Positions 1-43,611 of a stretch of DNA of 64,000 bases are shown piece after piece. The notes under the pieces were generated by a model. The model made no database searches and had not been told where the DNA came from. It was given only the letters and a program-made list of their open reading frames with translations. The position numbers and the translations under genes are program-made. The stretch's first letter is position 1; each line of letters opens with the position of its first letter. The DNA comes from Trueperaceae bacterium (GTDB lineage: Bacteria > Deinococcota > Deinococci > Deinococcales > Trueperaceae). The stretch spans positions 1 through 64,000 of the forward strand of contig DASSXV010000087.1 in assembly GCA_035703635.1 (NCBI GenBank), given 5' to 3'.

Positions 1-2
1 AC

Positions 3-176
3 GTCTACTGCGTCGACATCCTCAAGCAGGTCAAGGCCGTGCAGGGGGCGCTGGCGCGCGTCAGCGACGCCGTGCTCAGGTCGCACATCCGCGACCACGT
101 CGCCACCGCCAGCCAGCGCGGCGACACCGAGCACATCGTCACGGAACTGATGGAAGCCCTCAAGTACCGCACCTGA
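3..176 (+). CDS. csoR: CsoR/RcnR-family copper-sensing repressor (5' end outside window)
   Basis: Manual translation: VYCVDILKQVKAVQGALARVSDAVLRSHIRDHV...ELMEALKYRT*. C-H-H ligand pattern as in Thermus CsoR; directly upstream of copA. Confidence 0.9.
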   Translation, partial: VYCVDILKQVKAVQGALARVSDAVLRSHIRDHVATASQRGDTEHIVTELMEALKYRT

Positions 177-229
177 GCGCCGGGCGACGTGAAAGCGTCG
201 CCCGCCTCGCATAGTGAACAGGAGAAGTC

Positions 230-2731
<2,502 letters not shown>

Positions 2732-2765
2732 CGCCGTGACGGACCCAAGCCCCGAAGGAGACACC

Positions 2766-3173
2766 ATGCAAACCGCACCGCAGACGCTCGGACAACTCGT
2801 TGGCAGCTTCAAGGGCTCCCGCGAGCTCGTGCGCGACCGCCACGCCTTCCTCAAGCGCAGCGCCGGCAAGCACGACGTCCCGCAGCTCGCCGGCCTGCCC
2901 ATGCTGGGCCTGGGCGGGAGCTGCGGCAAGCCCGGCTTCCAGCTCCCCTACGTGGTGCGCTTCGACGACGCGAAGCTCGAGCGGCTCGAGCAGACCGCCG
3001 CGCGCTTCGGCATGTTCGTCGAGTACGGCGCCTACCCCCACCTCAAGCTCGAGGACGGCGGGCAGGAGATCGCCGCCGTGCAGGACTGGACCACGCTGAC
3101 GCTCGTGTTCCTGCGCCCCTCCTACGACCGCAAGGAGGAGCTGCTGACGGCGATCAGCCAGGCGCTCGCCTGA
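2766..3173 (+). CDS. Hypothetical ~135-aa soluble protein inside the copper cluster
   Basis: GAAGGAG RBS 5 nt before ATG 2766; island-like codon usage; motifs GLGGSCGKP and EYGAYPHLK. Confidence 0.8.
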   Translation: MQTAPQTLGQLVGSFKGSRELVRDRHAFLKRSAGKHDVPQLAGLPMLGLGGSCGKPGFQLPYVVRFDDAKLERLEQTAARFGMFVEYGAYPHLKLEDGGQEIAAVQDWTTLTLVFLRPSYDRKEELLTAISQALA

Positions 3174-3210
3174 CTCCCGGCCAGGGCGCGAGCCCGGAAA
3201 GGACGACAAC

Positions 3211-4310
3211 ATGACGACCCAGACAAGAACGCGCGTGGCGGTGAACGGCTACGGCGTGATCGGCAAGCGCATCGCCGACGCGGTGCGCCTGCAGCCCGAC
3301 ATGGAGCTCGTGGGAGTCGCCGACGTGGTCGCCGACTACCGCCTCCAGACCGCCGCCCTCCAGGACGTCCCCGTCTACGCCTCCACGCCTGAAGGCGCGA
3401 AGGCCATGCGCGCCGCCGGCATCCCCGTGGCGGGCGAGCTGGGCGCGCTCCTGGAGCGCGTGGACGTGGTCGCCGACTGCACCCCCAAGGGCGTCGGCGC
3501 CAGCAACCTCAAACTCTACCGGCGCGCGGGCGTGAAGGCAGCGCTGCAGGGCGGCGAGAAGCACGACGTGACGGGCCACTCGTTCGTGGCGCAAGCCAAC
3601 TACGCCAGCGCCGTCGGCCGCGACTTCACCCGCGTCGTCTCCTGCAACACCACCAGCACCGTCCGCACCCTGGGCGCGCTGCACGAAGCCGGCCTGCTCA
3701 AGAAGGCGCGCGGGGTGCTGGTGCGCCGCGCCACCGACCCGTGGGAGTCGGACCACTCCGGCATCATGAACACCGTCGTGCCCGAACGCGTCATCCCCAG
3801 CCACCAGGGGCCCGACGCGCGCACCGTCATGCCCGCGCTCGACGTGGTCACCATCGCCGCCAAGGCGGCGCACACCCAGGGCCACGGCCACTTCTGGATC
3901 GCCGAACTCACCCGCGAAGCGAGCAGGGACGAGGTGCTGGACGCCTTCAGGGCCGCGCCGCGCATCGCGCTCATGCGCATGGGCGACGGCATCGTCGCGC
4001 TCAACAGCACCATCGAGCTGATGCGCGACCTCCACCGCCCGCGCGGCGACATGTGGGAGGTCGCCCTCTGGGAGGACGTCCTCACCGTCGAGGGAAACGA
4101 GCTCTACTACAGCTACCAGGTCGACAACCAGGCCATCGTGGTGCCCGAAACCATCGACGCCCTGCGCGCCCTCACCGCCACCGCCGACGCCGACGAGTCG
4201 ATGCGCCTCACCGACGAGACCCTCGGCCTCACCGACGACTTCCTCAGGCCGCAAGCGCACCCGCACGCGCCCGCCGCCCTTACCCCAGACATCGCCCGCG
4301 AGGAGGCCCC

Positions 4311-4314
<4 letters not shown>
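3211..4314 (+). CDS. Type II (archaeal-type) glyceraldehyde-3-phosphate dehydrogenase
   Basis: VAVNGYGVIGKRIADAV, DCTPKG, QGGEKHD, RVVSCNTT (catalytic Cys), RRATDP, PSHQGPD, PRGDMWE, ETIDALRAL; AAAGGA RBS. Confidence 0.93.
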
Positions 4315-6476
<2,162 letters not shown>

Positions 6477-6485
6477 GGCTCCGCC

Positions 6486-6572
6486 CGCGCGCCTCGAGGC
6501 GGCGCTCCCCGGGCTAGGGCGGCCGAGGTCGGCGAAGAGATTGCCGCTACCGGCCACGATGGCGTTGTCATC
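6486..6572 (-). pseudogene. Relic of the N-terminus of an XRE/HigA-like (HTH_37) antitoxin
   Basis: Minus strand reads DDNAIVAGSGNLFADLGRP, then ERRLEAR after a frameshift; resembles the SGNVFADLG motif; no HTH follows. Confidence 0.5.
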
Positions 6573-6860
6573 GAGGCGCGCGACACGCTTGTCCACGGCA
6601 GCGCCGTCATTATCGACTGCCCCTAGGGCGCGTCGCCCCCGCGGCACATAGCTGATCTACCCGCTGGCTTACGGCTACCTGGCCGGCACGACCGCGGGCG
6701 ACGCTTCCGGCATCAGCGTGCGCTTGGGAAGCGGCGCCCACAAGGCGGCGGCCGCCGCGTTGTGCAAACTCGATCTGTTCAAGTGTGACGCGGCGTTCAA
6801 GTCAAAGCCGGGCTGCGCGGCAGCGATCGTGACCGTAGCGGTTCATGAACATGACGGTCG
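6573..6860 (+). pseudogene. Degraded small inorganic-pyrophosphatase-like gene
   Basis: DTLVHGSAVIIDCP*GASPPRH (TAG 6624-6626), frameshift near 6650, then LIYPLAYGYLAGTTAGDASGISV...LCKLDLFKCDA; resembles IDRPKGS...YPLDYGYLEGTT.GDG.GIDV. Confidence 0.65.
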
Positions 6861-6958
6861 GCCCGCCCGGTTGCACCCTGGACCGCACGTAGCAGCAGGA
6901 GCCGCGAGCCGCATGAGCCGGCGACGTGCGGACGACGGAGTCACCGCTACCATGGGGC

Positions 6959-7378
6959 ATGACGACGATCGGGCAGTTGGCGCGGCGCACGCGCGAGTCG
7001 GTGAAGACCCTAAGGTACTGGACGGACCTGGGCCTGCTGGCGGCCGAGCGCGGCGCCAACGGCTACCGCTACTACGGCGCCGGCGCCGCCGAGCGCGTGG
7101 GGTTCATCCGCGGCGCGCAGGCGCTCGGCCTCACGCTGCGCGAGATAAGGGACGTCCTCGCCGCGCGCGAGCACGAGCACCCGCCCTGCCAGGCGGCGCG
7201 CGCCGTCCTGGCGCGGCACCTGCGCGACGTGCGCGAGCGCCTGGCGCAGTGGGCGCGCCTGGAGGCGGAGCTCGCCGAGCGGCTGGCGTGGGCGGAGGCG
7301 CACCCGCGCCCCGCCTGCGAGGGCGAGGGCTGCGTCTACCTCGCCGACACGCCCGCCCGCCCGGGCGCGGCCGCTTGA
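6959..7378 (+). CDS. MerR-family metal-responsive regulator
   Basis: TIGQLARRT..SVKTLRYW...GYRYY HTH; FIRGAQALGLTLREI; three Cys (PPC, PAC, EGC); TACCAT -10 hexamer 5 nt before ATG. Confidence 0.9.
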   Translation: MTTIGQLARRTRESVKTLRYWTDLGLLAAERGANGYRYYGAGAAERVGFIRGAQALGLTLREIRDVLAAREHEHPPCQAARAVLARHLRDVRERLAQWARLEAELAERLAWAEAHPRPACEGEGCVYLADTPARPGAAA

Positions 7379-7406
7379 CCCTCCCCCTTACGGGAGGGTC
7401 TAGCCT
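7375..7406 (+). promoter_or_regulatory. MerR-type promoter/operator of merA
   Basis: -35 TTGACC (7375-7380), 20-bp spacer, -10 TAGCCT (7401-7406); perfect 9-bp inverted repeat GACCCTCCC/GGGAGGGTC (7377-7385, 7392-7400); ATG 6 nt after the -10. Confidence 0.85.
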
Positions 7407-7412
7407 GCGGGC

Positions 7413-8831
7413 ATGGCCAGAGCCGAGAACTCCGATTACGACCTTTTGATCATCGGCGCGGGCGGGGCGGGCACGGCCGCCGCCATCCGCGGCGCCGAAC
7501 TGGGCGCGCGCGTCGCCATCGCCGAGGGCGCGGCGGTGGGCGGCACCTGCGTCAACGTCGGCTGCATCCCCTCCAAGCTCCTGCTCGAGGCGGCCGCCCA
7601 GTTCCACGCCGCCCGCACCGGCTTCCCGAGCCTCGCCGGCGAGGCGCAGGCCGCCTGGGAAAGGGCGCAGGCGCGCAAGGGCGCCGTGGTCGCGAGGCTC
7701 CGGCAGGAGAAGTACCTCGACGTGCTCGCCGGCTACGAGGGCGTGACGCTCTTGCGCGGGGCGGCCGAACTCCTGGGGGCGGAGCGCGTGCGCGTGGGCG
7801 AGGCGGTGGTGGGCGCGCGCCGGGTGGTGCTCGCCACGGGCGCGGCGCCCGCCCTGCCGCCCGTCCCCGGCCTGGCAGAAGCGGGCGCCCTCACCAGCAC
7901 CAGCGCCATGGAGCTCAAGGCGCTGCCGGCGTCGCTGATCGTGCTCGGCGCCGGCGCCGTCGGCCTGGAGCTGGGCCAGGCGTTCGCGCGCTTCGGCGTC
8001 AGGGTCAGCGTGCTCGAGGCCGAGGCGCGCATCCTGCCCAGCGAGGACCCCGAGCTGACGCGCGCGCTGGCGGACGCCCTCGCCGCCGAGGGGCTGGAGC
8101 TGCGCGCGGGCGCGCGCGTGACGGGCGTGACGCGCGACGAGACCGGTTACCACCTCGACGTCGAGCAGGGCGGCAAGGAAGAGTCGCTGCACGCCGAGCA
8201 GCTCCTGGTGGCCGCCGGCCGCCGGCCCAACACCGCCGGCCTCGGCCTGGAGGGCGCGGGGGTGGAGGTCGACGCGCGCGGCTTCGCGCGCGTCGACGGC
8301 TTCATGCGCACCTCCAACGCGCGCGTCTTCGCCGCCGGCGACGTCACCGGCGCGCCCCAGTTCGTCTACCTCGCCGCCGCGGCGGGCCGGGTCGCGGCGG
8401 AGGCCGCCCTCGCCGACCTCACGGGCGCGCCGGCCGCGCCGCTCGACGCGAGCACCGTGCCGCGCGTCACCTTCACCGACCCGCAGCTCGCCGCCGTGGG
8501 CTTGACGGAAGCGCAGGCGCGGGCGGCGGGGCACGCCGTGCAAGTGGCGACGCTGCCGGCGGCGGCCATCCCGCGCGCGGCCGTCACCGGCTCCGACCGC
8601 GGCCTCATCAAGCTGGTGGCGGAGGCGCCCGGCGGCCGCCTGCTCGGCGCGCACCTCCTGAGCGCCAACGCCGGCGACGTCATCGGCGAGGCCACCCTGG
8701 CGCTGCGCTTCGCCCTCACCAGCGCCGACCTCGCCACCACCCTCCACCCCTACCTGACGTGGGCGGAGGGACTTAAGCTGGCGGCCCAGGCGTTCACCCA
8801 GGACGTGACCAGGCTCTCCTGCTGCGCCTGA
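7413..8831 (+). CDS. merA: Mercuric reductase without NmerA domain
   Basis: GGTCVNVGCIPSK redox-active disulfide, TLHPYLT, C-terminal LSCCA vicinal Cys pair. Confidence 0.93.
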   Translation: MARAENSDYDLLIIGAGGAGTAAAIRGAELGARVAIAEGAAVGGTCVNVGCIPSKLLLEAAAQFHAARTGFPSLAGEAQAAWERAQARKGAVVARLRQEKYLDVLAGYEGVTLLRGAAELLGAERVRVGEAVVGARRVVLATGAAPALPPVPGLAEAGALTSTSAMELKALPASLIVLGAGAVGLELGQAFARFGVRVSVLEAEARILPSEDPELTRALADALAAEGLELRAGARVTGVTRDETGYHLDVEQGGKEESLHAEQLLVAAGRRPNTAGLGLEGAGVEVDARGFARVDGFMRTSNARVFAAGDVTGAPQFVYLAAAAGRVAAEAALADLTGAPAAPLDASTVPRVTFTDPQLAAVGLTEAQARAAGHAVQVATLPAAAIPRAAVTGSDRGLIKLVAEAPGGRLLGAHLLSANAGDVIGEATLALRFALTSADLATTLHPYLTWAEGLKLAAQAFTQDVTRLSCCA

Positions 8832-8913
8832 GGCGCGCGCCGCCCACCGGGCCGGCGCCCGGGCTGGGTAGGATGCCGAGGTCGACCGGTTCACGAGGGA
8901 GGCGCGGGACTTG

Positions 8914-9309
8914 ATGCTGCACGCCATACCGGCCCTGCCGGTGCGCGACCTGAAGCGGAGCGTGGCCTTCTACCGCGACCACCTCGGCTTCGCCCTGCTT
9001 CACGACGAGGCGGCCTTCGCCGTCCTGCGGCGCGACGCCGTCGAGCTGCACCTGTGGACGGCCGCCGACGAGGCCTGGCGCCAGCGCCACGCCCCAGCGC
9101 CGCTGGTGTCGGGCGCCGAGTCGTTCCTGGCCGGCACGGCGAGCTGCCGCATCGCCGTCACGGACGTGGACGCGCTGCACGAGGCGCTGCGGCCGCTGGG
9201 CGTGCTGCACCCCAACGCGCCGCTGCGCGACGAGTGGTACGGCGCGCGCGAGTTCGGGGTGCTCGACCCCGACCGCAACCTCATCACCTTCTACCAGCAA
9301 CGCGCCTGA
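8914..9309 (+). CDS. Bleomycin-binding VOC-family protein (BleO-like)
   Basis: IPALPV.D..RS..FY...LGF, ELHLW, GAESFLAGTASCRI, LHPN, DPDRNLITFYQ. Confidence 0.85.
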   Translation: MLHAIPALPVRDLKRSVAFYRDHLGFALLHDEAAFAVLRRDAVELHLWTAADEAWRQRHAPAPLVSGAESFLAGTASCRIAVTDVDALHEALRPLGVLHPNAPLRDEWYGAREFGVLDPDRNLITFYQQRA

Positions 9310-9535
9310 TCGCCGCCGGCTCACCCCGGCCTCGACAGCCGTCCTGCTTGTCGCCATTGCCTATCCACGCCGCAATGCTCATGAGCAGGACTCCTTTCGA
9401 GTGGGCGCTGGCGTTCCCACCCCCAAGCGCCCTAGGTGCTGTGCGTTCCCGCCAAATGCGCCTCAGGCCGCGGTGGTAGGCGCGGCGCGCGACTGGAGCG
9501 AGGGGCTCGCAGGGCGGATGGTCCGGCGCGTAGGC

Positions 9536-9832
9536 TTAGCGCCCGCTCCCTCCTCCGCGGCGCCCGGCGCCGAGTCCGCGCCGCCGGCCCGTGCCGTCAT
9601 GGTGCGGCGCCGTCCGCGCCTTCCCCGCCGGGGCCTCGGCAGGCTGCCTCTCGGGAAGCCGCTGGTCGGAACCGCGCGCCTCCCTCATCAAAAGCAGCAC
9701 GGCGAGCGGGCAGAGGGCGAGTAGGGCGAGCGGCACCCAGATCGGCAGCGACTCGCGCGTGAAGAGGACGGCCAACAGCGCGACCGTCCCGATAGCCCAA
9801 GCGAGGTGCCGGTGCAGGTGGCGCACGTTCAT
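9536..9832 (-). CDS. Small membrane protein, DUF2933-like (possibly degenerate)
   Basis: AAAGGAG RBS; two hydrophobic helices with LLALCPL motif; usual His-rich tail absent. Confidence 0.55.
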   Translation of the reverse strand: MNVRHLHRHLAWAIGTVALLAVLFTRESLPIWVPLALLALCPLAVLLLMREARGSDQRLPERQPAEAPAGKARTAPHHDGTGRRRGLGAGRRGGGSGR

Positions 9833-10114
9833 AGCAGTTCAGCTCCTTTTCCGTCCCGCTCGTCGATCCGAAGGGTGGGCGGCGACCCCGGGGATAGGCG
9901 TCACGTGGGAGCGTCGCGGGCGCGACCTTCCGGACGCCTCCCCCGGGCGGCCGGGCAAGAGCCCGCCGCCGATGCCCCATGTTCCCCTACGGGTGTTCAG
10001 GCCGTTCAAGGCCAATGCAAAGTTTGTGTTGCCTCGCCCGCACACCAGCCGGCGCCGTCCGGCGCCGCCCAGCGCGGCCAGGGCGTAGCATGATCACCAG
10101 AAGGGCAGGTAAAC

Positions 10115-11065
10115 ATGCACCAGGAAAACGGGGCGGGGAGCGCAACGCACGCAACCGCCAGCGCGCGCACGAGCAAGGCGGGATCTCCCGAAACGTTCAA
10201 GGGCGGCGTCATCATGGACGTGGTGACGCCCGACCAGGCGCGCATCGCCGAGCAGGCGGGCGCCGTGGCGGTGATGGCGCTCGAGCGCGTGCCCGCCGAC
10301 ATCCGCTCCCAAGGCGGCGTGGCGCGCATGTCCGACCCCGGCCTCATCGAAGAGATCATCGAGGCCGTGTCGATCCCGGTGATGGCCAAGGCGCGCATCG
10401 GCCACTTCGTCGAGGCCCAGATCCTGCAGGCCATCGGCGTCGACTTCATCGACGAGTCCGAGGTCCTCACCCCCGCCGACGAGGCCTACCACATCGACAA
10501 GCGCGCCTTCCGCGTGCCGTTCGTGTGCGGCGCCACCAACATCGGCGAGGCCCTGCGGCGCATCGGCGAGGGCGCCGCCATGATCAGGACAAAGGGCGAG
10601 GCCGGCACCGGCAACGTGGTCGAAGCCGTGCGCCACGCCCGCAGCGTGATCGGCGAGATCCGCGCCCTGCAAAGCATGGCCAGCGAGCAACTCATGAGCT
10701 ACGCCAAGGAGCACGGCGCCCCCTACGACCTCGTGCGCTACGTCCACACGCACGGCAAGCTGCCGGTGGCCAACTTCGCGGCAGGCGGCGTGGCCACCCC
10801 GGCCGACGCCGCTCTCATGATGCAGCTCGGCGTCGACGGCGTGTTCGTTGGATCAGGCATCTTCAAGGCGGCCGCTAGCGAGACCGATGAGAGCCGCCGG
10901 CGGGCAGCCTGGGCGCGCCGCGCCGGGGCTATCGTCAAGGCCGTGAAGCACCACGACGACCCCGCCGCGCTCGCCGAACTGTCCAAGAACCTGGGGGAGG
11001 CCATGGTCGGCATCGGCATGGAGTCGCTCGCGGAGGACCAGCTTCTGGCCCGCCGGGGCTGGTGA
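10115..11065 (+). CDS. pdxS: Pyridoxal 5'-phosphate synthase lyase subunit
   Basis: [72 protein letters not shown]-terminal RGW. Confidence 0.95.
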
Positions 11066-11244
11066 GCGCCCGGCACCGCGCGCTGACGGCCAGAACGCGG
11101 CAGCCGCACCCCCGGACCCCATGAAATCGCCACCGCCCCCACAGGGGTGAAGGCGCGCCATGGTCCCTCGCTTAGCCTGTGCCGCTCACCCATCCACCTT
11201 ACGGAACGCCAGCCTAAACCTTGGGCTGAGGCCCGCCATTCAGG

Positions 11245-11324
11245 GTTCTCAGGTCAACTGCCGCCCGTTCTCAGTTCGTTCTCAACTGAACTTCCGTGTT
11301 CTCAGTTCTAACTTCCGCTCTACA
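11245..11324 (-). repeat. Putative transposon end: terminal TGT plus clustered transposase-binding repeats
   Basis: Plus strand: GTTCTCAGGTCAACTGCCG (11245-11263), GTTCTCAGTTC (11267-11277), GTTCTCAACTGAACTTCCG (11278-11296), GTTCTCAGTTCTAACTTCCG (11298-11317), then CTCTACA. Confidence 0.75.
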
Positions 11325-11334
11325 AATCAACAGC

Positions 11335-12564
11335 CTACCCGCTAAGCTGCCCGATAATCGAGAACATCGGCAGGAACATGCCAGCAACGATGAAGCCGAC
11401 GATGACACCGAGGAACACGATGAGCATGGGCTCTAGCGCGGCAGTGAGGCTGTCGACTGCCTCGTCAACCTCCCGCTCGTAGAAGTCGGCGACCTTTTGG
11501 AGCATGCCGTCCACAGCGCCGGTTTCTTCACCGATGGCCACCATGGAGGACACCATTGGCGGGAAAACACGCGGGTACTTCATTAGTGTTTGACTGATCT
11601 GCTCACCGCGTTGGACCGAGTCCTTGGTTTCGTCTAGGATGTCTTCAACTATGGCGTTGCCAGCGGTGCCCTTGGTGATCTCGATCGATTCGATGATGTT
11701 GACGCCCGACCGAAGGAGCAAACCGAAGGTGTTCGAGAAGCTCGCGATTGCGCTCTTCTGCACGAGTGTGCCAACTACAGGCATGCGCAACACGAACCCG
11801 TCAAGCACCCGCCTACCGCTCTTAGTGCGGTAGTAGAAGCCGAGACCAACCACCACGGCCACGATCAGGCCGATCATTATGTACCACTGGTACCGAAGAA
11901 AGTCCGATACAGCGATCAGGGCCTTGGTGATTACGGGTAGGTCGCCACCCAACTGGTCGAGGATGGTCGCGAACTGCGGGACAATGCCCGTGAGCAGGAA
12001 CCAAGTCACCGCAAGCGCGATCACGAGTACGACCGTTGGGTATGTGAGAGCCGTCTTGATCTTGCCGCGTAAGGCCGCCTGCTTCTCCATGTAGGCGGCG
12101 ATGCGGTCGAGGATGCCGTCGAGGTTGCCAGACACCTCACCCGCCTTGACAAGGTAGATGTAGAGCTTGTTGAAGAGTCTAGGGTGTTTGGCTAGACCGT
12201 TCGAGAGCTGCTGGCCGGTCTCGACGTCTTCGCGCACTTGCTTGAGGGCGTCCTTAAGACCTTCCTTCGGCGCCTGTCGCTGCAGGATGGCGAGGCTCTG
12301 CACGACTGGCAAGCCCGCGTTGATGACCGTAGCGAACTGCCTGGAGAAGATGGTGATGTCACGAACGTTCGGGACACTACCGATATCCAACCACTTGGGT
12401 AGCTTTAGGTCGGTCTGCAGGCCCGACTTCGGGGCCTTGATTTCGGTGACAAAATAGCCCTTTTGGCGCAGGGAATTGGCCACGTCGCGCTCGGAAAGCG
12501 CTTCCGTTGTGCCCGTGATGACTTTGCCACTACGGTCACGGACCTTGTACTCGAAAACCGCCAT
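11335..12564 (-). CDS. pilC: Type IV pilus platform protein (T2SS F family)
   Basis: FSRQFATVINAGLP, GEVSGNLD, ALTYP, GEETGAVD, AALEP; GGGAGG RBS. Confidence 0.95.
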   Translation of the reverse strand: MAVFEYKVRDRSGKVITGTTEALSERDVANSLRQKGYFVTEIKAPKSGLQTDLKLPKWLDIGSVPNVRDITIFSRQFATVINAGLPVVQSLAILQRQAPKEGLKDALKQVREDVETGQQLSNGLAKHPRLFNKLYIYLVKAGEVSGNLDGILDRIAAYMEKQAALRGKIKTALTYPTVVLVIALAVTWFLLTGIVPQFATILDQLGGDLPVITKALIAVSDFLRYQWYIMIGLIVAVVVGLGFYYRTKSGRRVLDGFVLRMPVVGTLVQKSAIASFSNTFGLLLRSGVNIIESIEITKGTAGNAIVEDILDETKDSVQRGEQISQTLMKYPRVFPPMVSSMVAIGEETGAVDGMLQKVADFYEREVDEAVDSLTAALEPMLIVFLGVIVGFIVAGMFLPMFSIIGQLSG

Positions 12565-12664
12565 CCTGCCTCCCTAGACGCTAGCGCGGACGCTATCTCG
12601 AACTTAAACGAGAACCACGCGACCCGGCCGCAAGTAGCCTACCCGAGCAGCTGCTTCGAAAGCT

Positions 12665-12687
12665 GGTGGATAGGTCACTTATCCACA
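12665..12687. promoter_or_regulatory. Perfect DnaA-box sequence with an inverted degenerate partner between pilC and nth
   Basis: TTATCCACA at 12679-12687; GGTGGATAG at 12665-12673. Confidence 0.35.
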
Positions 12688-12708
12688 CCCGGGGGTAGCA
12701 TGCGAACC

Positions 12709-13368
12709 ATGGCGGTTCCAACACGGGAATCAATGAAGGCACGTCGTGAACGCGCGCTAAGGGTGTTGACTTCACTAAAGGTCCTCTATCCTGACGCCCG
12801 TACCGAGCTAGACTTCTCCACACCTTTCGAACTCCTCATCGCGACCCTTCTGTCTGCACAGGCCACCGACGTGAGCGTTAATCTCGCTACCCCTGCGTTG
12901 TTCGCGGCATTTCCGACACCTGAGGCGATGGCGGAGGCCACCGCCGAGGCGGTAGAACCCTTCATCAAGTCCATCGGCCTTTACCGCACCAAAGCGAAGA
13001 ACTCTGTGGCGGCCGCTAAACTGCTAGTCGAACGTCACGGTGGCGCCGTACCAGGGACGATGGCGGAGCTAGTGGCCCTGCCGGGCGTTGGCCGCAAGAC
13101 TGCCAACGTGGTGCTCGCAAACGCGTTTGGAATCCCGACAATCGCCGTCGATACCCACGTTGGGCGACTTGCCCGGCGCTTGGGCTTCTCGAAACTCACA
13201 GATCCGGACAAGGTGGAGCTGGACCTGGCCAAGACGTTCCCGGAGAGTGAGTGGGTCTTCCTGCACCACGCACTGATCTTGCATGGGCGGCGCGTGTGCA
13301 CGGCACGCAAGCCCGACTGCACGCACTGCCCTCTGTGCGACGATTGCCCGTCATGCGGTCGATTGTGA
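12709..13368 (+). CDS. nth: Endonuclease III
   Basis: LLSAQATD, HhH motif LPGVGRKTANVV, AVDTHV, C-terminal 4Fe-4S Cys cluster; TAGCAT -10 hexamer 7 nt before ATG. Confidence 0.95.
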   Translation: MAVPTRESMKARRERALRVLTSLKVLYPDARTELDFSTPFELLIATLLSAQATDVSVNLATPALFAAFPTPEAMAEATAEAVEPFIKSIGLYRTKAKNSVAAAKLLVERHGGAVPGTMAELVALPGVGRKTANVVLANAFGIPTIAVDTHVGRLARRLGFSKLTDPDKVELDLAKTFPESEWVFLHHALILHGRRVCTARKPDCTHCPLCDDCPSCGRL

Positions 13369-39170: not shown

Positions 39171-40130
39171 ATGGACAGCACCAAGATGACCTATCGCAGG
39201 GTTGGCAACAGTGGCCTCAAGGTGAGCAGCGTCAGCCTCGGAGGTTGGACGACCTTCGGTCAGACCGTGGAGGAGCAGAACACGGTGCGGCGCATCATCG
39301 ACCGCGCCCTAGAACTAGGGGTCAACTTCTTCGACACCGCCGACGTTTACGCGAAGGGCAAGTGCGAGGAGATGATGGGCGAAGCGCTCGGCGAGGCCGG
39401 CCAGCGTCACCACCTCGTCGTGAGCAGCAAGGTCTACTGGCCGATGTCCGACAACGTGAACGACCGCGGCCTCAGCCGCAAGCACATCCTCGAGTCGATC
39501 GATAACTCGCTAGATCGCCTTGGCTTCGACTACCTCGACATCTACTTCTCTCACCGTTACGACCATGAGACGCCACTCGAGGAGACCGTCGAGGCATTCT
39601 CCGACGTCGTTCGTTCAGGCCGCGCTCACTACTGGGGCACGAGTATGTGGACGGCGGCGCAGATCACGGAGGCCGTCACTTACGCCAAATCGAACGGGCT
39701 CGTTGCGCCCATCGTCGAGCAACCCGAGTACTCCATGCTGCGCAGCGAACGCGTCGAGACCGAGATTATGCCGGTAACGAAGGCGAAGGGCGTTGGCCTG
39801 GTCGCCTTCAGCCCTCTCGCGCAAGGCATGTTGACCGGCAAGTACGACGCCGGCGTCCCTAGCGATTCGCGCTTCGCGCACTTCGAGACGTTCAAGGAGC
39901 GCTTTCTCACCGAGGAGAACGTCGCCCGCGTGCGTGCGCTCAAGGAGATAGCCGACGACTTGGGCGTCACTCGCAGCCAGCTCGCACTGGCTTGGGTGCT
40001 GCGCAACGCGAACGTTTCCTCCGTCATCACGGGAGCGACGCGCGTCGCGCAGCTCGAGGAGAACGTTGGCGCGGCGACGGTAACCCTCGACGAAGAACTG
40101 CTCGGCCGCATCGAGAAGGCGCTCGGCTAG
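39171..40130 (+). CDS. Aldo/keto reductase (Kv-beta-like)
   Basis: [38 protein letters not shown]. Confidence 0.92.
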
Positions 40131-40160
40131 GCGGCCCCTGACCGTGTTCGCGGCGGCGTC

Positions 40161-41672
40161 GTGAAGCTTTACCGCGCAGCCGAGCTGCGAGCGGCCGACA
40201 GCGCGGCCGCGGCTGCTGGCATCAGTACCTGGCGCCTCATGGAAGCCGCCGGCGGCGCCGTTGCCCGGCTCGTGGCGGCGCGTTACCCGGACGCCGGGCG
40301 CGCCACGGTGCTGTGCGGGAAGGGCAACAACGGTGGCGACGGTTACGTCTGCGCTCGCCAACTAGCCGCGAGCGGGTGGGACGTGAAGGTGCTCGAGCTG
40401 ACGGCAGAGCCCGGAACGCCCGACGCGCGCCGCGCACGCGCCGATCTCGTTGGCGCCGGATCGGCTGCGCCGCTCGACGCCGGCACCAACCTCGGCGAGG
40501 CCGGGGTGATCGTCGACGCCCTCTTCGGTAGTGGCCTCAACCGCCCGGTGGAAGGGTGGTTAGGCGAGCTGCTCGCGCGCCTCCACGAGCATGACGCTCC
40601 CGTCGTGGCCGTCGACGTGCCCAGCGGAGTGCCAAGCGACGTCCCACAACTGTTCGGCCCCCACGTGAGGGCCACGCTGACGGTCGAACTGGCCGGACAC
40701 AAGGTCGCGGGCGCCTTCTACCCGACGCGGGCCGCTTACGGGGAACGCGTCCTCGCGCCGATCGGCATTCCGCCTGCCGTGCTGGCCGAATGCGGCACGG
40801 TGCAGGTCGTCACGGGTGAGGAGGTGGCGGCCTGGTTACCGCGGCGCGCGCCTGACGCGCACAAGTACTCGGCGGGCACGGTGACCGTGGTGGGCGGTTC
40901 GGCGCGCTACTCAGGCGCCGCAGAACTCGCTAGCCGCGGCGCGTGGCGCGCGGGCGCCGGGCTGGTGACCATCATCGGACCCACCCGCCACCCCGCAGCG
41001 TGGCCGGAGACGATCTTCGAACTCTGGACTCCGTCGGAGGGCAGCGCCGCCCAGTTGCGCGGCGCGTTCGTGCCCAAGCGCGCCGCCGCGACCGTCATCG
41101 GGCCCGGGCTCGACGAGCGCGCGCTCGCGTACTTGCCTGAACTCCTCCGTTTGGCCCCCGGCCCGGTCGTCATCGACGCGGCCGCTCTCACCCCACGCGT
41201 GTGGCCGCGGGCGGAACGCTCGGCGTTGCGCACCAAGGGCGGGGCCACCATGACTCCGCATGCGGGGGAGGCGGCCCAACTCTTGGGTACCACCGCGGCG
41301 GCGGTTACCGGAGACCCGCTTGGGGCGGCGGCGGCGTTGGCGGCCGAGTTCGGGGCCGTCGTCGTGCTCAAGGGGCCGACAACTGTCGTCGCGGCGCCAG
41401 ACGGACGCGCCGCCATCTCGGAACGTGGCCACCCAGGCATGGCGAGCGGCGGAACGGGCGACGTGCTCGCCGGAGTGCTCGGGGCGCTCCTCGCGCCCGC
41501 TGGCGGCGGCGAAGAGCAGTTCACGCGCGTCTGCGCCGGCGTGTGGCTACACGGGGTGGCGGGCGAGCTGGCGGCGACCACGGCCGGGCTTGGCCTCGTC
41601 GCCAGCGACTTGGCGGCGGCGTTACCACTGGCGGCCGCCAGGGCCGCTGCCACTGACATGGCGTCCGAGTAG
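40161..41672 (+). CDS. nnr: Bifunctional NAD(P)HX epimerase/dehydratase
   Basis: LMEAAG, CGKGNNGGDG, DALFGSG, AVDVPSG, TPHAGEA, GGTGDVLAG. Confidence 0.92.
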   Translation: MKLYRAAELRAADSAAAAAGISTWRLMEAAGGAVARLVAARYPDAGRATVLCGKGNNGGDGYVCARQLAASGWDVKVLELTAEPGTPDARRARADLVGAGSAAPLDAGTNLGEAGVIVDALFGSGLNRPVEGWLGELLARLHEHDAPVVAVDVPSGVPSDVPQLFGPHVRATLTVELAGHKVAGAFYPTRAAYGERVLAPIGIPPAVLAECGTVQVVTGEEVAAWLPRRAPDAHKYSAGTVTVVGGSARYSGAAELASRGAWRAGAGLVTIIGPTRHPAAWPETIFELWTPSEGSAAQLRGAFVPKRAAATVIGPGLDERALAYLPELLRLAPGPVVIDAAALTPRVWPRAERSALRTKGGATMTPHAGEAAQLLGTTAAAVTGDPLGAAAALAAEFGAVVVLKGPTTVVAAPDGRAAISERGHPGMASGGTGDVLAGVLGALLAPAGGGEEQFTRVCAGVWLHGVAGELAATTAGLGLVASDLAAALPLAAARAAATDMASE

Positions 41673-41716
41673 GCGGCAGACGCAGCGCCAATCGGCCGGA
41701 TGGTAGCGTGCCACAC

Positions 41717-42601
41717 ATGTTCCGCGCACGCGTTCCGGCCAGCAGCGCCAACCTCGGGCCGGGTTTCGACGCCCTCGGGCTCGCCCTCGACCTTCAACTC
41801 GAAGTCACGTTAGAAGAAGCCGCTAGCGATTCGTTCAGTTACCGCGGCCGCGATAGCGTGCCAGAGACACCAGACAACCTCGTGCACCGCGGCTTCCGCG
41901 CCGCCTACCAACGATTAGGACTGACTGCCCCGACGGTAGCGCTAAGCGTCGTGAACCCCATCCCACTCGCGCGCGGTCTCGGCTCATCGTCCGCTGCGCT
42001 AGTCGCCGGCGCGGCCCTCGCCGACGCCATGACGAACGGTGCGCTTGGCAGGCGCGGCGTTTTCGAGCTCACTGCCGCCCTCGAAGGTCACCCCGACAAC
42101 GTCGGGCCTTGCGTGTTCGGCGGCTTTACCGTTGCGGCAAGTGACGAGACGGGCGCCTTCCTCGAGGCCGCCCTGCCCGTGCCCGCCGGTTGGCGCTTCC
42201 TGTTCGGCGTGCCAGCCTTCGAGCTGTCTACGGCGGAAGCGCGGGCCGCATTGCCAGACAGTTACAGCCGCCGCGACGTCGTCCTGACCGCCTCTCGCGC
42301 GGCCCTGTGGGTGGCGGCCGTTGCCCTCGAGCGTCCGGAACTGCTGCGCACGGCAGCCCTCGACGTCATTCACCAACCGTACAGGGCAAGCCTCGTCCCA
42401 GGGTTCACCGCGGCCATCACGGCGTTGCGTGAGGCCGGCGCTTACGCTGCCTTCCTCTCCGGCGCTGGTCCGACGGTTGGGGCGGTCGTCGACGCCGCTG
42501 TGCTGCCGTCCTGCCGCGCCAACCTCGAGGCGTTCGTTGGGGCGGGTGGCGAGGTGCTCGAGCTAGGCGCCGCGGCCGGTTACGTAACGGAGCGTTACTG
42601 A
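41717..42601 (+). CDS. thrB: Homoserine kinase
   Basis: PASSANLGPGFD, IPLARGLGSS, EGHPDN, HQPYR, LSGAGPT. Confidence 0.95.
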   Translation: MFRARVPASSANLGPGFDALGLALDLQLEVTLEEAASDSFSYRGRDSVPETPDNLVHRGFRAAYQRLGLTAPTVALSVVNPIPLARGLGSSSAALVAGAALADAMTNGALGRRGVFELTAALEGHPDNVGPCVFGGFTVAASDETGAFLEAALPVPAGWRFLFGVPAFELSTAEARAALPDSYSRRDVVLTASRAALWVAAVALERPELLRTAALDVIHQPYRASLVPGFTAAITALREAGAYAAFLSGAGPTVGAVVDAAVLPSCRANLEAFVGAGGEVLELGAAAGYVTERY

Positions 42602-43611
42602 TGCCCGGCCCCGCCGAGTCCAAGGGCGGCGCCCCCCTCGTCCTCGGCATCGACACCTCGTGCGACGACACCGGCGTTGGGGTGGCAAGAGGCCCAGTTG
42701 TCCTCGCGAACGTGGTCGAGTCGCAGACGGCGCTGCACGCGCGTTTCGGCGGCGTCATGCCGGAACTCGCGAGCCGCGAGCACCTCGAGGTGATCGCTGA
42801 CGTCGCGCAGCGTGCCTTGGCCGAGGCAGGCGTGACACTGGCAGACTTAGGCGCGGTGGCGGCCACGCGCGGGCCAGGCCTCGTCGGCGCGCTCCTCGTT
42901 GGGCTCAGTTACGGCAAGGCCCTCGCTTGGGGCCTCGGGGTGCCGTTCGTACCCGTTCACCACCTAGAGGGGCACCTGGCGGCGGCAGGCGGCGCAGAGC
43001 CTCCGTTCATCGCGCTCCTAGCGTCCGGCGGGCACACGGCGCTGTTCGCTGTCCACGCCTGGGGCCAGGTGGAGGAGCTCGGCCGCAGTCGTGACGACGC
43101 TGCTGGCGAGGCGTTCGACAAGGTGGCGCGGCTGCTCGACCTCGGTTATCCGGGTGGCGCGGCCCTAGCGCAGCTAGCCGCCACTGGCGACGACCAGGCA
43201 CTATCTCTGCCGCAGCCGATGCAGGGCCACAAGGGGCTCGACTTCTCGTTCAGCGGCCTCAAGACGGCCGTTGCCCAGTTGCTTGAACGCCAACCAGACG
43301 CGCGGCCAGCAGACGTTGCCGCCAGCTTCGAACGCGTGGTGGTCACCTCGCTAGTCAACGGCGCGGCGCGCGCCCTCAGCCAGACGGGCATGCAGCGACT
43401 CGTCGTGGCAGGTGGCGTGGCGGCCAACGCTAGGTTGCGACGCGAGTTCGCGGCCGCGGGCATCGACGTTGCCTTCCCCCCGCCGGCGCTAGCCACCGAT
43501 AACGGCGCGATGATCGCGCTGGCCGGTGGGCAGAGGCTAGCAAGTGGCCGCTTGCCGCCCGCGCCCTTCACCGCTGACGCGGAACCGTACCTGCCACTCG
43601 TTGGCGCCTAA
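42601..43611 (+). CDS. tsaD: tRNA threonylcarbamoyltransferase
   Basis: GIDTSCDDT, HHLEGH, SGGHT, DDAAGEAFDK, FSFSGLKT, TDNGAMI. Confidence 0.95.
   Translation: MPGPAESKGGAPLVLGIDTSCDDTGVGVARGPVVLANVVESQTALHARFGGVMPELASREHLEVIADVAQRALAEAGVTLADLGAVAATRGPGLVGALLVGLSYGKALAWGLGVPFVPVHHLEGHLAAAGGAEPPFIALLASGGHTALFAVHAWGQVEELGRSRDDAAGEAFDKVARLLDLGYPGGAALAQLAATGDDQALSLPQPMQGHKGLDFSFSGLKTAVAQLLERQPDARPADVAASFERVVVTSLVNGAARALSQTGMQRLVVAGGVAANARLRREFAAAGIDVAFPPPALATDNGAMIALAGGQRLASGRLPPAPFTADAEPYLPLVGA

Follow-up and report, generated by a model that had tools for sequence, protein, structure and literature searches.

We conclude with high confidence that positions 11245–11324 of the window (the whole 64,000-nucleotide stretch of DNA that was analysed) are the right end of a Tn7-like element of ∼27.4 kb, which encodes TnsA and TnsB, TnsC, and a TnsD/TniQ protein and would be guided to pilC by TnsD, and that the copy found here is probably a recombinant. 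Read directly from the sequence, the end lies on the − strand, with 11324 as the outermost base of the element, and opens with the tip TGTAGAG (11324–11318). An alignment of nine ends is conserved from (T)GTAGAG inward and divergent in the flanks beyond it. Inward from the tip follow repeat 1, CGGAAGTTAGAACTGAGAAC (20 bp, 11317–11298), a single A (11297), repeat 2, CGGAAGTTCAGTTGAGAAC (19 bp, 11296–11278), the partial repeat 3, GAACTGAGAAC (11 bp, 11277–11267), the trinucleotide GGG (11266–11264), and the innermost repeat 4, CGGCAGTTGACCTGAGAAC (19 bp, 11263–11245), all on the − strand. Repeats 1, 2, and 4 are putative TnsB-binding sites, as judged by direct reading, a site pattern, and the alignment; the partial repeat was delimited by reading, word count, and alignment, and all four repeats terminate in TGAGAAC.

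Outside the tip lies AATCA (11325–11329), the 5 bp that abut it in the position expected for a target duplication, followed by ACAGC (11330–11334) and the stop codon of pilC (CTA/TAG, 11335–11337, − strand). The spacer between the tip and the stop codon is thus 10 bp long (11325–11334), compared with 8–10 bp in relatives. The pilC gene (11335–12564, − strand) is an intact ORF encoding a type IV pilus platform protein of the T2SSF family (409 amino acids; Pfam T2SSF, E = 1e-63), which was the single PilC match returned by a homology search of this genome, and its 3′ end is, by analogy with Tn7, the presumed recognition site. The G+C content is 0.70–0.77 over window positions 1–11000 and goes down to 0.59–0.60 at 11001–13000 (elsewhere in the window, positions 40001–43000 have a G+C content of 0.71–0.73 compared with ∼0.66 around them). 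The initial annotation had described a TGT tip with three full and one partial repeat of 19–20 bp, with AATCA and then the pilC stop codon outside it, where metal cargo borders on core genes; on re-reading, the sequence proved to be as stated, and metal-resistance cargo does lie on one side of the end and pilC on the other.

The clustering of the repeats at the right end exceeds chance. The word CTGAGAAC occurs four times in the 64-kb window, compared with 1.56 expected occurrences, and three of the four fall within the 61 bp of 11245–11305. Across the 2.9-Mb assembly, runs of at least three TGAGAAC motifs spaced less than 60 bp apart were present at the right end only; one unrelated TGAGAAC pair lies on contig C31. 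A looser site pattern matched the genome 16 times, compared with 3–5 times in five shuffles, and in the whole genome the matches formed clusters only at C53:11245–11315 (− strand, three matches), C53 being the contig of the window, and at C11:8625–8666 (+ strand, two matches). The latter cluster is the left end of the element, on the strand opposite to that of the right-end cluster.

An element probably divided between two contigs

Because the first base of the window is also the first base of contig C53, the island is interrupted by the assembly, and its left end and tns genes are on another contig, C11. To establish contiguity, we relied on an alignment of 80 kb of G003, a complete relative from the same genus that carries the same end beside its pilC, to this assembly. 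C11:8477–23955 matched G003 with 99.8% identity (plus/plus), and window positions 1–6492 matched the adjoining stretch of G003 with 97.5% identity (plus/plus). From this synteny we infer that C11 runs into the first base of the window across an unassembled gap of ∼0.7 kb. The 15,395 bp of C11:8561–23955, the gap of ∼725 bp, and the 11,324 bp of the window then add up to an element of ∼27.4 kb.

All four tns genes lie on the − strand of C11: tnsA (C11:14781–15515, 245 amino acids), with a PF08722 match of 29.4 bits (cut-off 26.5) and a weak PF08721 match; tnsB (C11:12574–14781, 736 amino acids), with Mu-transpos_C and rve domains; tnsC (C11:11368–12537, 390 amino acids), with TniB (PF05621, E = 1.2e-12) and AAA_22 matches; and tnsD (C11:8828–11368, equivalent to L021:4828–7368, 847 amino acids), with a PF06527 match of 70 bits. 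Their products are full-length and 99–100% identical to their G003 counterparts. TnsB matched solved TnsB chains with an E value of 1.8e-08 when searched as a single protein and 1.4e-26 when searched as a profile, and the residues D265/D270, D378, and E414, invariant in all six aligned homologues, are read from the alignment as the probable catalytic triad. In TnsD, Cys/His columns are invariant in all eight homologues. When the TnsD model (mean pLDDT 68) was compared with known folds, TnsD and TniQ chains came out on top, none of them at E ≤0.001; the best match, the TnsD-TnsC-DNA complex 8v32, had a probability of 0.96 but an E value of 0.016, and a search of the PDB with the TnsD sequence returned no match. 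Residues 642–825 of TnsD match residues 416–599 (35% identity, E = 1e-30), indicating that a tandem duplication of the C-terminal region accounts for its length of 847 amino acids; homologues of ∼600–630 amino acids have one copy of this region. The duplicated C-terminal DNA-binding region may alter how the site is read.

Because TnsA is present, the element belongs to the Tn7 type and not to the Tn5053/Tn402 type. The end had been called Tn7/Tn5053-like before, and the first half of that name is retained; the second half is dropped, as TnsA is encoded on C11.

The left end starts at C11:8561 with the tip TGTAGACATGACGCTAGAACTTAGAAC (TGTAGAC...), 267 bp past the tnsD stop codon, as determined by end alignment and the site pattern. 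It is inverted with respect to the right end and identical to the left ends of G003 and G013; its sites are spaced, and those of the right end are packed as direct repeats. Between the right end and tnsA lie ∼20 kb of mostly cargo, the same as in G003, G008, and G272, and no second end adjoining tnsA was found in G003 or in this genome. A generic search for inverted repeats near the first tns operon in G003 yielded nothing useful, and position C52:22680, considered as a partner end, was treated as a chance occurrence, being within a coding sequence and having no repeats. The matching end and tns genes for which the initial annotation had suggested a search upstream of the window do exist, as the inverted left end and tnsA/B/C/D, but on contig C11 and with ∼20 kb separating the tns genes from the right end. 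Neither TnsE nor a CRISPR module was seen.

On the evidence of Pfam matches and G+C content, the right-hand cargo (window positions 1–11244) is a metal-resistance island, which is 90.8–97.5% identical to that of G003. The Pfam matches on its + strand comprise an HMA P-type ATPase (230–2731), a second P-type ATPase (within 3741–6476), a MerA-like oxidoreductase (7413–8831), a glyoxalase (8911–9309), and a second copy of pdxS (10115–11065). Further cargo identified by Pfam includes DUF305, DUF326, and DUF411 proteins, a two-component system, and cytochrome c, and the cargo is, by its predicted products, of the copper/mercury/heavy-metal resistance type. The island copy of pdxS is 80% identical at the DNA level to a further copy in the genome (C70:38595–39464).

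How such an element would reach its site can be outlined from the TnsABC+D pathway of Tn7, from which the following steps are drawn as it is presented in the available sections of PMC11406308. TnsD would bind the conserved last codons of pilC (...PMFSIIGQLS), a position within the 3′ coding sequence that is suggested by the fixed offset of the element to the stop codon, and would bring in TnsC, and TnsA and TnsB, acting on the repeats of both ends, would excise the element. Insertion would then take place in one orientation, with the right end toward pilC and 8–10 bp past its stop codon, and would produce a 5-bp duplication and leave pilC intact.

Insertions in relatives and the probable history of this copy

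We read the sequence after the pilC stop codon in 17 genomes of the genus besides this one. The same type of end follows pilC in six of them (G003, G008, G009, G011, G012, and G013), and a variant end follows it in G007; in G001 and G006, another tip, TGTTG, stands directly after the stop codon, G015 has no repeats there, and in the other genomes of the genus either the contig breaks off at pilC or no more than a few bases from it, or pilC was not found. The sequence of the 8–10-bp spacer varies between species, and variable spacers next to near-identical ends speak for separate insertions. The repeats are absent after pilC in G015, G271, G311, G310, and G284. Of these, G015 was tried as an empty site and proved only partly usable, the first 1.2 kb after its pilC having no match in G008. 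Where the contig of a relative extends inward past the repeats, as it does in four (G003, G008, G013, and G272), the island follows every time. Several draft contigs end ∼5–45 bases past the pilC stop codon, namely those of G002, G276, G277, G016, G006, and G025 (L035, L038, L039, L009, L012, and L069), and such breaks are expected if repeated element ends start there.

Both flanks of the element were read, in pilC-sense orientation, in five genomes. The right and left flanks agree exactly in G008 (GCTGG/GCTGG), in G003 (GTTGT/GTTGT), and, across two contigs, in G013 (CGAGG/CGAGG); in G272 (GAACG/AACGT), four to five of five bases match with a one-base shift, and in the present genome, G000 (TGATT/GTTGG), there is no agreement. 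The 5-bp duplication is thus exact in three of five copies, nearly matched in a fourth, and absent from the window's own copy. The suggestion that AATCA is one half of a target duplication did not survive this comparison, the left flank in this genome being CCAAC (+ strand) and AATCA not being repeated there. The idea that relatives would have empty sites as well as independent insertions fared better: repeat-free sites were seen, and the 5-bp duplications differ between genomes at nearly the same offset.

G008, G009, G013, and G272 share one and the same right-end sequence, yet the bases outside it differ, as independent insertions would leave them. The right end in the window departs from that sequence in several places and is similar to that of G012, whereas the left end and the tns genes of this genome belong with those of G003. 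Toward the right end, identity to G003 declines (99.8%, 97.5%, 94.3%, and 90.8%), the gene order differs from that of G003, and ∼8.7 kb beside the end in G003 is missing here. With a right end of one sequence lineage and a left end and genes of another, the copy looks chimeric, and it is probably a recombinant of two related elements that once occupied the same site. Recombination between two elements would leave a right flank and a left flank that stem from different insertions, and the copy as it stands may never have transposed as a whole.

The site also holds an element of a second type. This outer Tn7-like element, with tips TGTTG.T..CCA.T.ATGG, extends in G003 from L015:10766 to ∼L017:1890, where it encodes its own tnsA?-tnsB-tnsC-tniQ and is bounded on either side by AGGTA, which overlaps the pilC stop codon; it is also present in this genome, without tns genes, from C11:3964 to ∼8477 (L019). 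The window-type element is inserted 1 bp inside the right tip of the outer element, with tip bases 2–6 duplicated. We lean toward the view that a second, unrelated Tn7-like lineage targets pilC at a different offset, with TGTTG tips and a duplication that overlaps the stop codon. Two lineages at the 3′ end of pilC would let elements stack and nest into large islands. Stacked and solo ends are common at the site. A tip 6–8 bp further out (TGTTG...), taken from the TACCT that flanks a 65.8-kb block of G003, was rejected for the window element because the left-end alignment and the duplications of G008 and G013 assign the TGTTG signal to the outer element and make TGTAGAG the correct tip. A third right-type end, at C11:2580–2650 (L019), has the same design built from other words (CGTAGAGCGGAAC..., ...TGATAGC); it faces away from the tns genes, has a GNAT gene after it, and is probably an older stacked element.

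The same observations that make the copy look chimeric can be read in another way, namely that the end is what remains of an earlier member of this family, that the island and the tns genes were joined to it later by recombination or deletion, and that the resulting structure no longer transposes. The lack of a target duplication in this genome, the different lineages of the right end and of the left end with its genes, the fall in identity to G003 from 99.8% to 90.8%, the rearranged gene order with ∼8.7 kb of G003 missing, and the frequency of stacked and solo ends all suit such a history. However, the tip and all four repeats are intact and conserved, tnsABCD are full-length and 99–100% identical to those of G003, and G003 and G013 have the same left end, and we regard a fossil end as possible but rather unlikely. 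It would in any case bear only on whether the element is active at present and not on what the sequence is.

The two readings in which the sequence is not a transposon end at all are both highly improbable. Were the repeats arm-type sites (attR) of an integrase-type island in the 3′ end of pilC, their location at the 3′ end of a conserved gene would be natural, and G003 does have a similar repeat block 66 kb away, in direct orientation and with a similar 12-bp flank; however, that direct copy is explained as belonging to another stacked element, as its right end, the ends of the element itself are inverted and not direct, and differing 5-bp duplications surround it in relatives. Pfam scans of 30 ORFs on the two sides of the unassembled ∼0.7-kb gap, in the window and on C11, contained no Phage_integrase. 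Host regulatory DNA, in the form of an operator array or a terminator of pilC or of the metal genes, would be at home in an intergenic position between convergent genes, but a host sequence of this kind is hard to reconcile with the absence of the repeats after pilC in the five genomes listed above (G015, G271, G311, G310, and G284), with the island that follows them in G003, G008, G013, and G272, or with the related inverted block beside tnsD. The right end of a Tn7-like element is the reading that we adopt in what follows.

pilC as a probable attachment site

Among 364 genomes of the phylum, 27 have a TnsD homologue (E ≤1e-10) and 336 have pilC, the latter tally taking in one unpublished genome, G326, which enters into no other result. 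In every one of the 15 genomes with both genes on one contig, tnsD is found on the pilC strand, 4.2–33.6 kb downstream of the 3′ end of pilC. Six of these 15 have the compact order pilC, end, tnsA-B-C-D, with a TnsB 31–48% identical to that of the window element, and in one compact genome, G020, tnsA starts ∼170 bp past pilC. The genes are on separate contigs in 11 of the 27 genomes, and the contig ends of G013, G011, G025, G056, G090, and G121 fit a break inside the element; a homology search for pilC in G278 found no match. The exception is G061, where two complete tnsABCD sets are arranged head to head in the middle of a contig, their right ends meeting without an intervening gene (L066:4349–4600) and with no pilC within the 38 kb read; pilC of this genome is on another contig, which ends 140 bp past the stop codon inside a similar end. 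An additional partial tnsD, in the opposite orientation, is present in G086. In G156 (L072), two right ends with the tips TGTAGGCGG and TGTAGGCAG lie ∼200 bp apart after pilC, the first of which is probably a solo remnant.

A search of a species collection with a TnsB profile returned 19 loci, some of which probably duplicate phylum genomes already counted. Related records bear titles naming Deinococcota, Trueperaceae, and Deinococcus, in line with the Deinococcota host proposed in the initial annotation. A pilC gene is found upstream, on the same strand, at 10 of the 19, and four of these 10 are in records titled beta-proteobacterial, Rhodoferax, or Pseudomonadota. At these four betaproteobacterial loci, their own pilC (38% identical to that of the window) is directly upstream of tnsA-tnsB, and a TGTAGGGA tip lies 8–9 bp past its stop codon. 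As to the other loci, two have more than 10 kb of cargo between tnsA and the right end, with pilC beyond the fetched flank, four have little or no sequence upstream of the tns genes, and one is a partial match of 44 residues; no pilC was present in the 9.3 kb of upstream sequence of one actinomycetotal locus or in the 9.3-kb island upstream of tnsA at one TnsB-profile locus. At the betaproteobacterial loci L050, L053, and L054, tnsC and tnsD are on the opposite strand and converge on tnsA-tnsB. L046, a 26-kb contig from a metagenome bin titled Rubrivivax, carries a tnsA-tnsB and an island 98.6–99.6% identical to those of this genome and is either a recent transfer or a mis-binned contig.

The initial annotation had also raised the possibility that the element is targeted to pilC, and this proposal gained support from the same-contig linkage in 15 of 15 genomes of the phylum and from the four betaproteobacterial loci, with G061 as the exception, although the counts are not independent because the genomes are related to one another and the loci probably overlap in part. 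On balance, we favor the broader reading that the 3′ end of pilC has long served as an attachment site for a whole TnsD-guided clade of Tn7-like elements found in Deinococcota (Trueperaceae and Deinococcus) and Betaproteobacteria, that a second lineage also uses the site, hence the stacking and nesting, and that the duplicated TnsD may change how the site is read.

Tn7 uses the TnsABC+TnsD pathway to insert at attTn7, at the 3′ end of glmS, in one orientation and with glmS left intact, and it has TGT...ACA termini and a 5-bp target duplication. The element described here resembles it in having TnsA, TnsB, TnsC, and a TniQ-domain TnsD, in its TGT...ACA termini, in its single orientation with the right end by the stop codon of an intact conserved gene, and in the 5-bp duplication, which is seen in relatives of this element and not in this copy. 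It differs from Tn7 in its target, which is pilC instead of glmS, in the ∼20 kb of cargo that this lineage has between its right end and tnsA, in the tandem C-terminal duplication of its 847-residue TnsD, and in that no second targeting module was seen, the left end following 267 bp past tnsD. Elements of the Tn5053/Tn402 group encode TniA, TniB, TniQ, and TniR, target res sites, and have TGT termini and a 5-bp duplication. A DDE transposase, a TniB-type ATPase, TniQ, TGT termini, and the 5-bp duplication are shared with that group, whereas TnsA is found here and insertion is at the end of a chromosomal gene, not at a res site. The four packed sites at the right end and the spaced sites at the left end are a further likeness to Tn7, for which the available sections of PMC11406308 describe four overlapping right-end sites and spaced left-end sites. 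Tn6022/AbaR-type and other Tn7-like elements have their own sites at comM, tRNA genes, and parE, according to the available sections of PMC11406308 and PMC10293859. The present element is like the Tn6022/AbaR type in its Tn7-like core machinery, its dedicated conserved chromosomal site, and its formation of islands by stacking, and differs in that pilC is not named for those elements in the same sections of PMC11406308 and PMC10293859.

The name pilC has no occurrences in the available main texts of PMC8649781, PMC10293859, and PMC11406308, and full-text searches of the literature returned no paper linking pilC with Tn7-like elements. We thus did not find pilC described in print as a Tn7-like attachment site, and supplementary tables, which list thousands of elements, may already catalogue these. 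With the tns genes 20 kb from the right end and copies stacked at the site, surveys that are anchored on genes may misplace the borders of such elements.

If the reading favored here is right, pilC would join the short list of named Tn7-like sites (glmS, tRNA genes, comM, and parE) as one that is used in two phyla. It would also account for the building up of metal-resistance and defence islands at one spot in Deinococcota, and the element and its site would amount to a natural "safe site" system with a fixed orientation, which might be tried as a means of gene insertion in Deinococcus-type bacteria.
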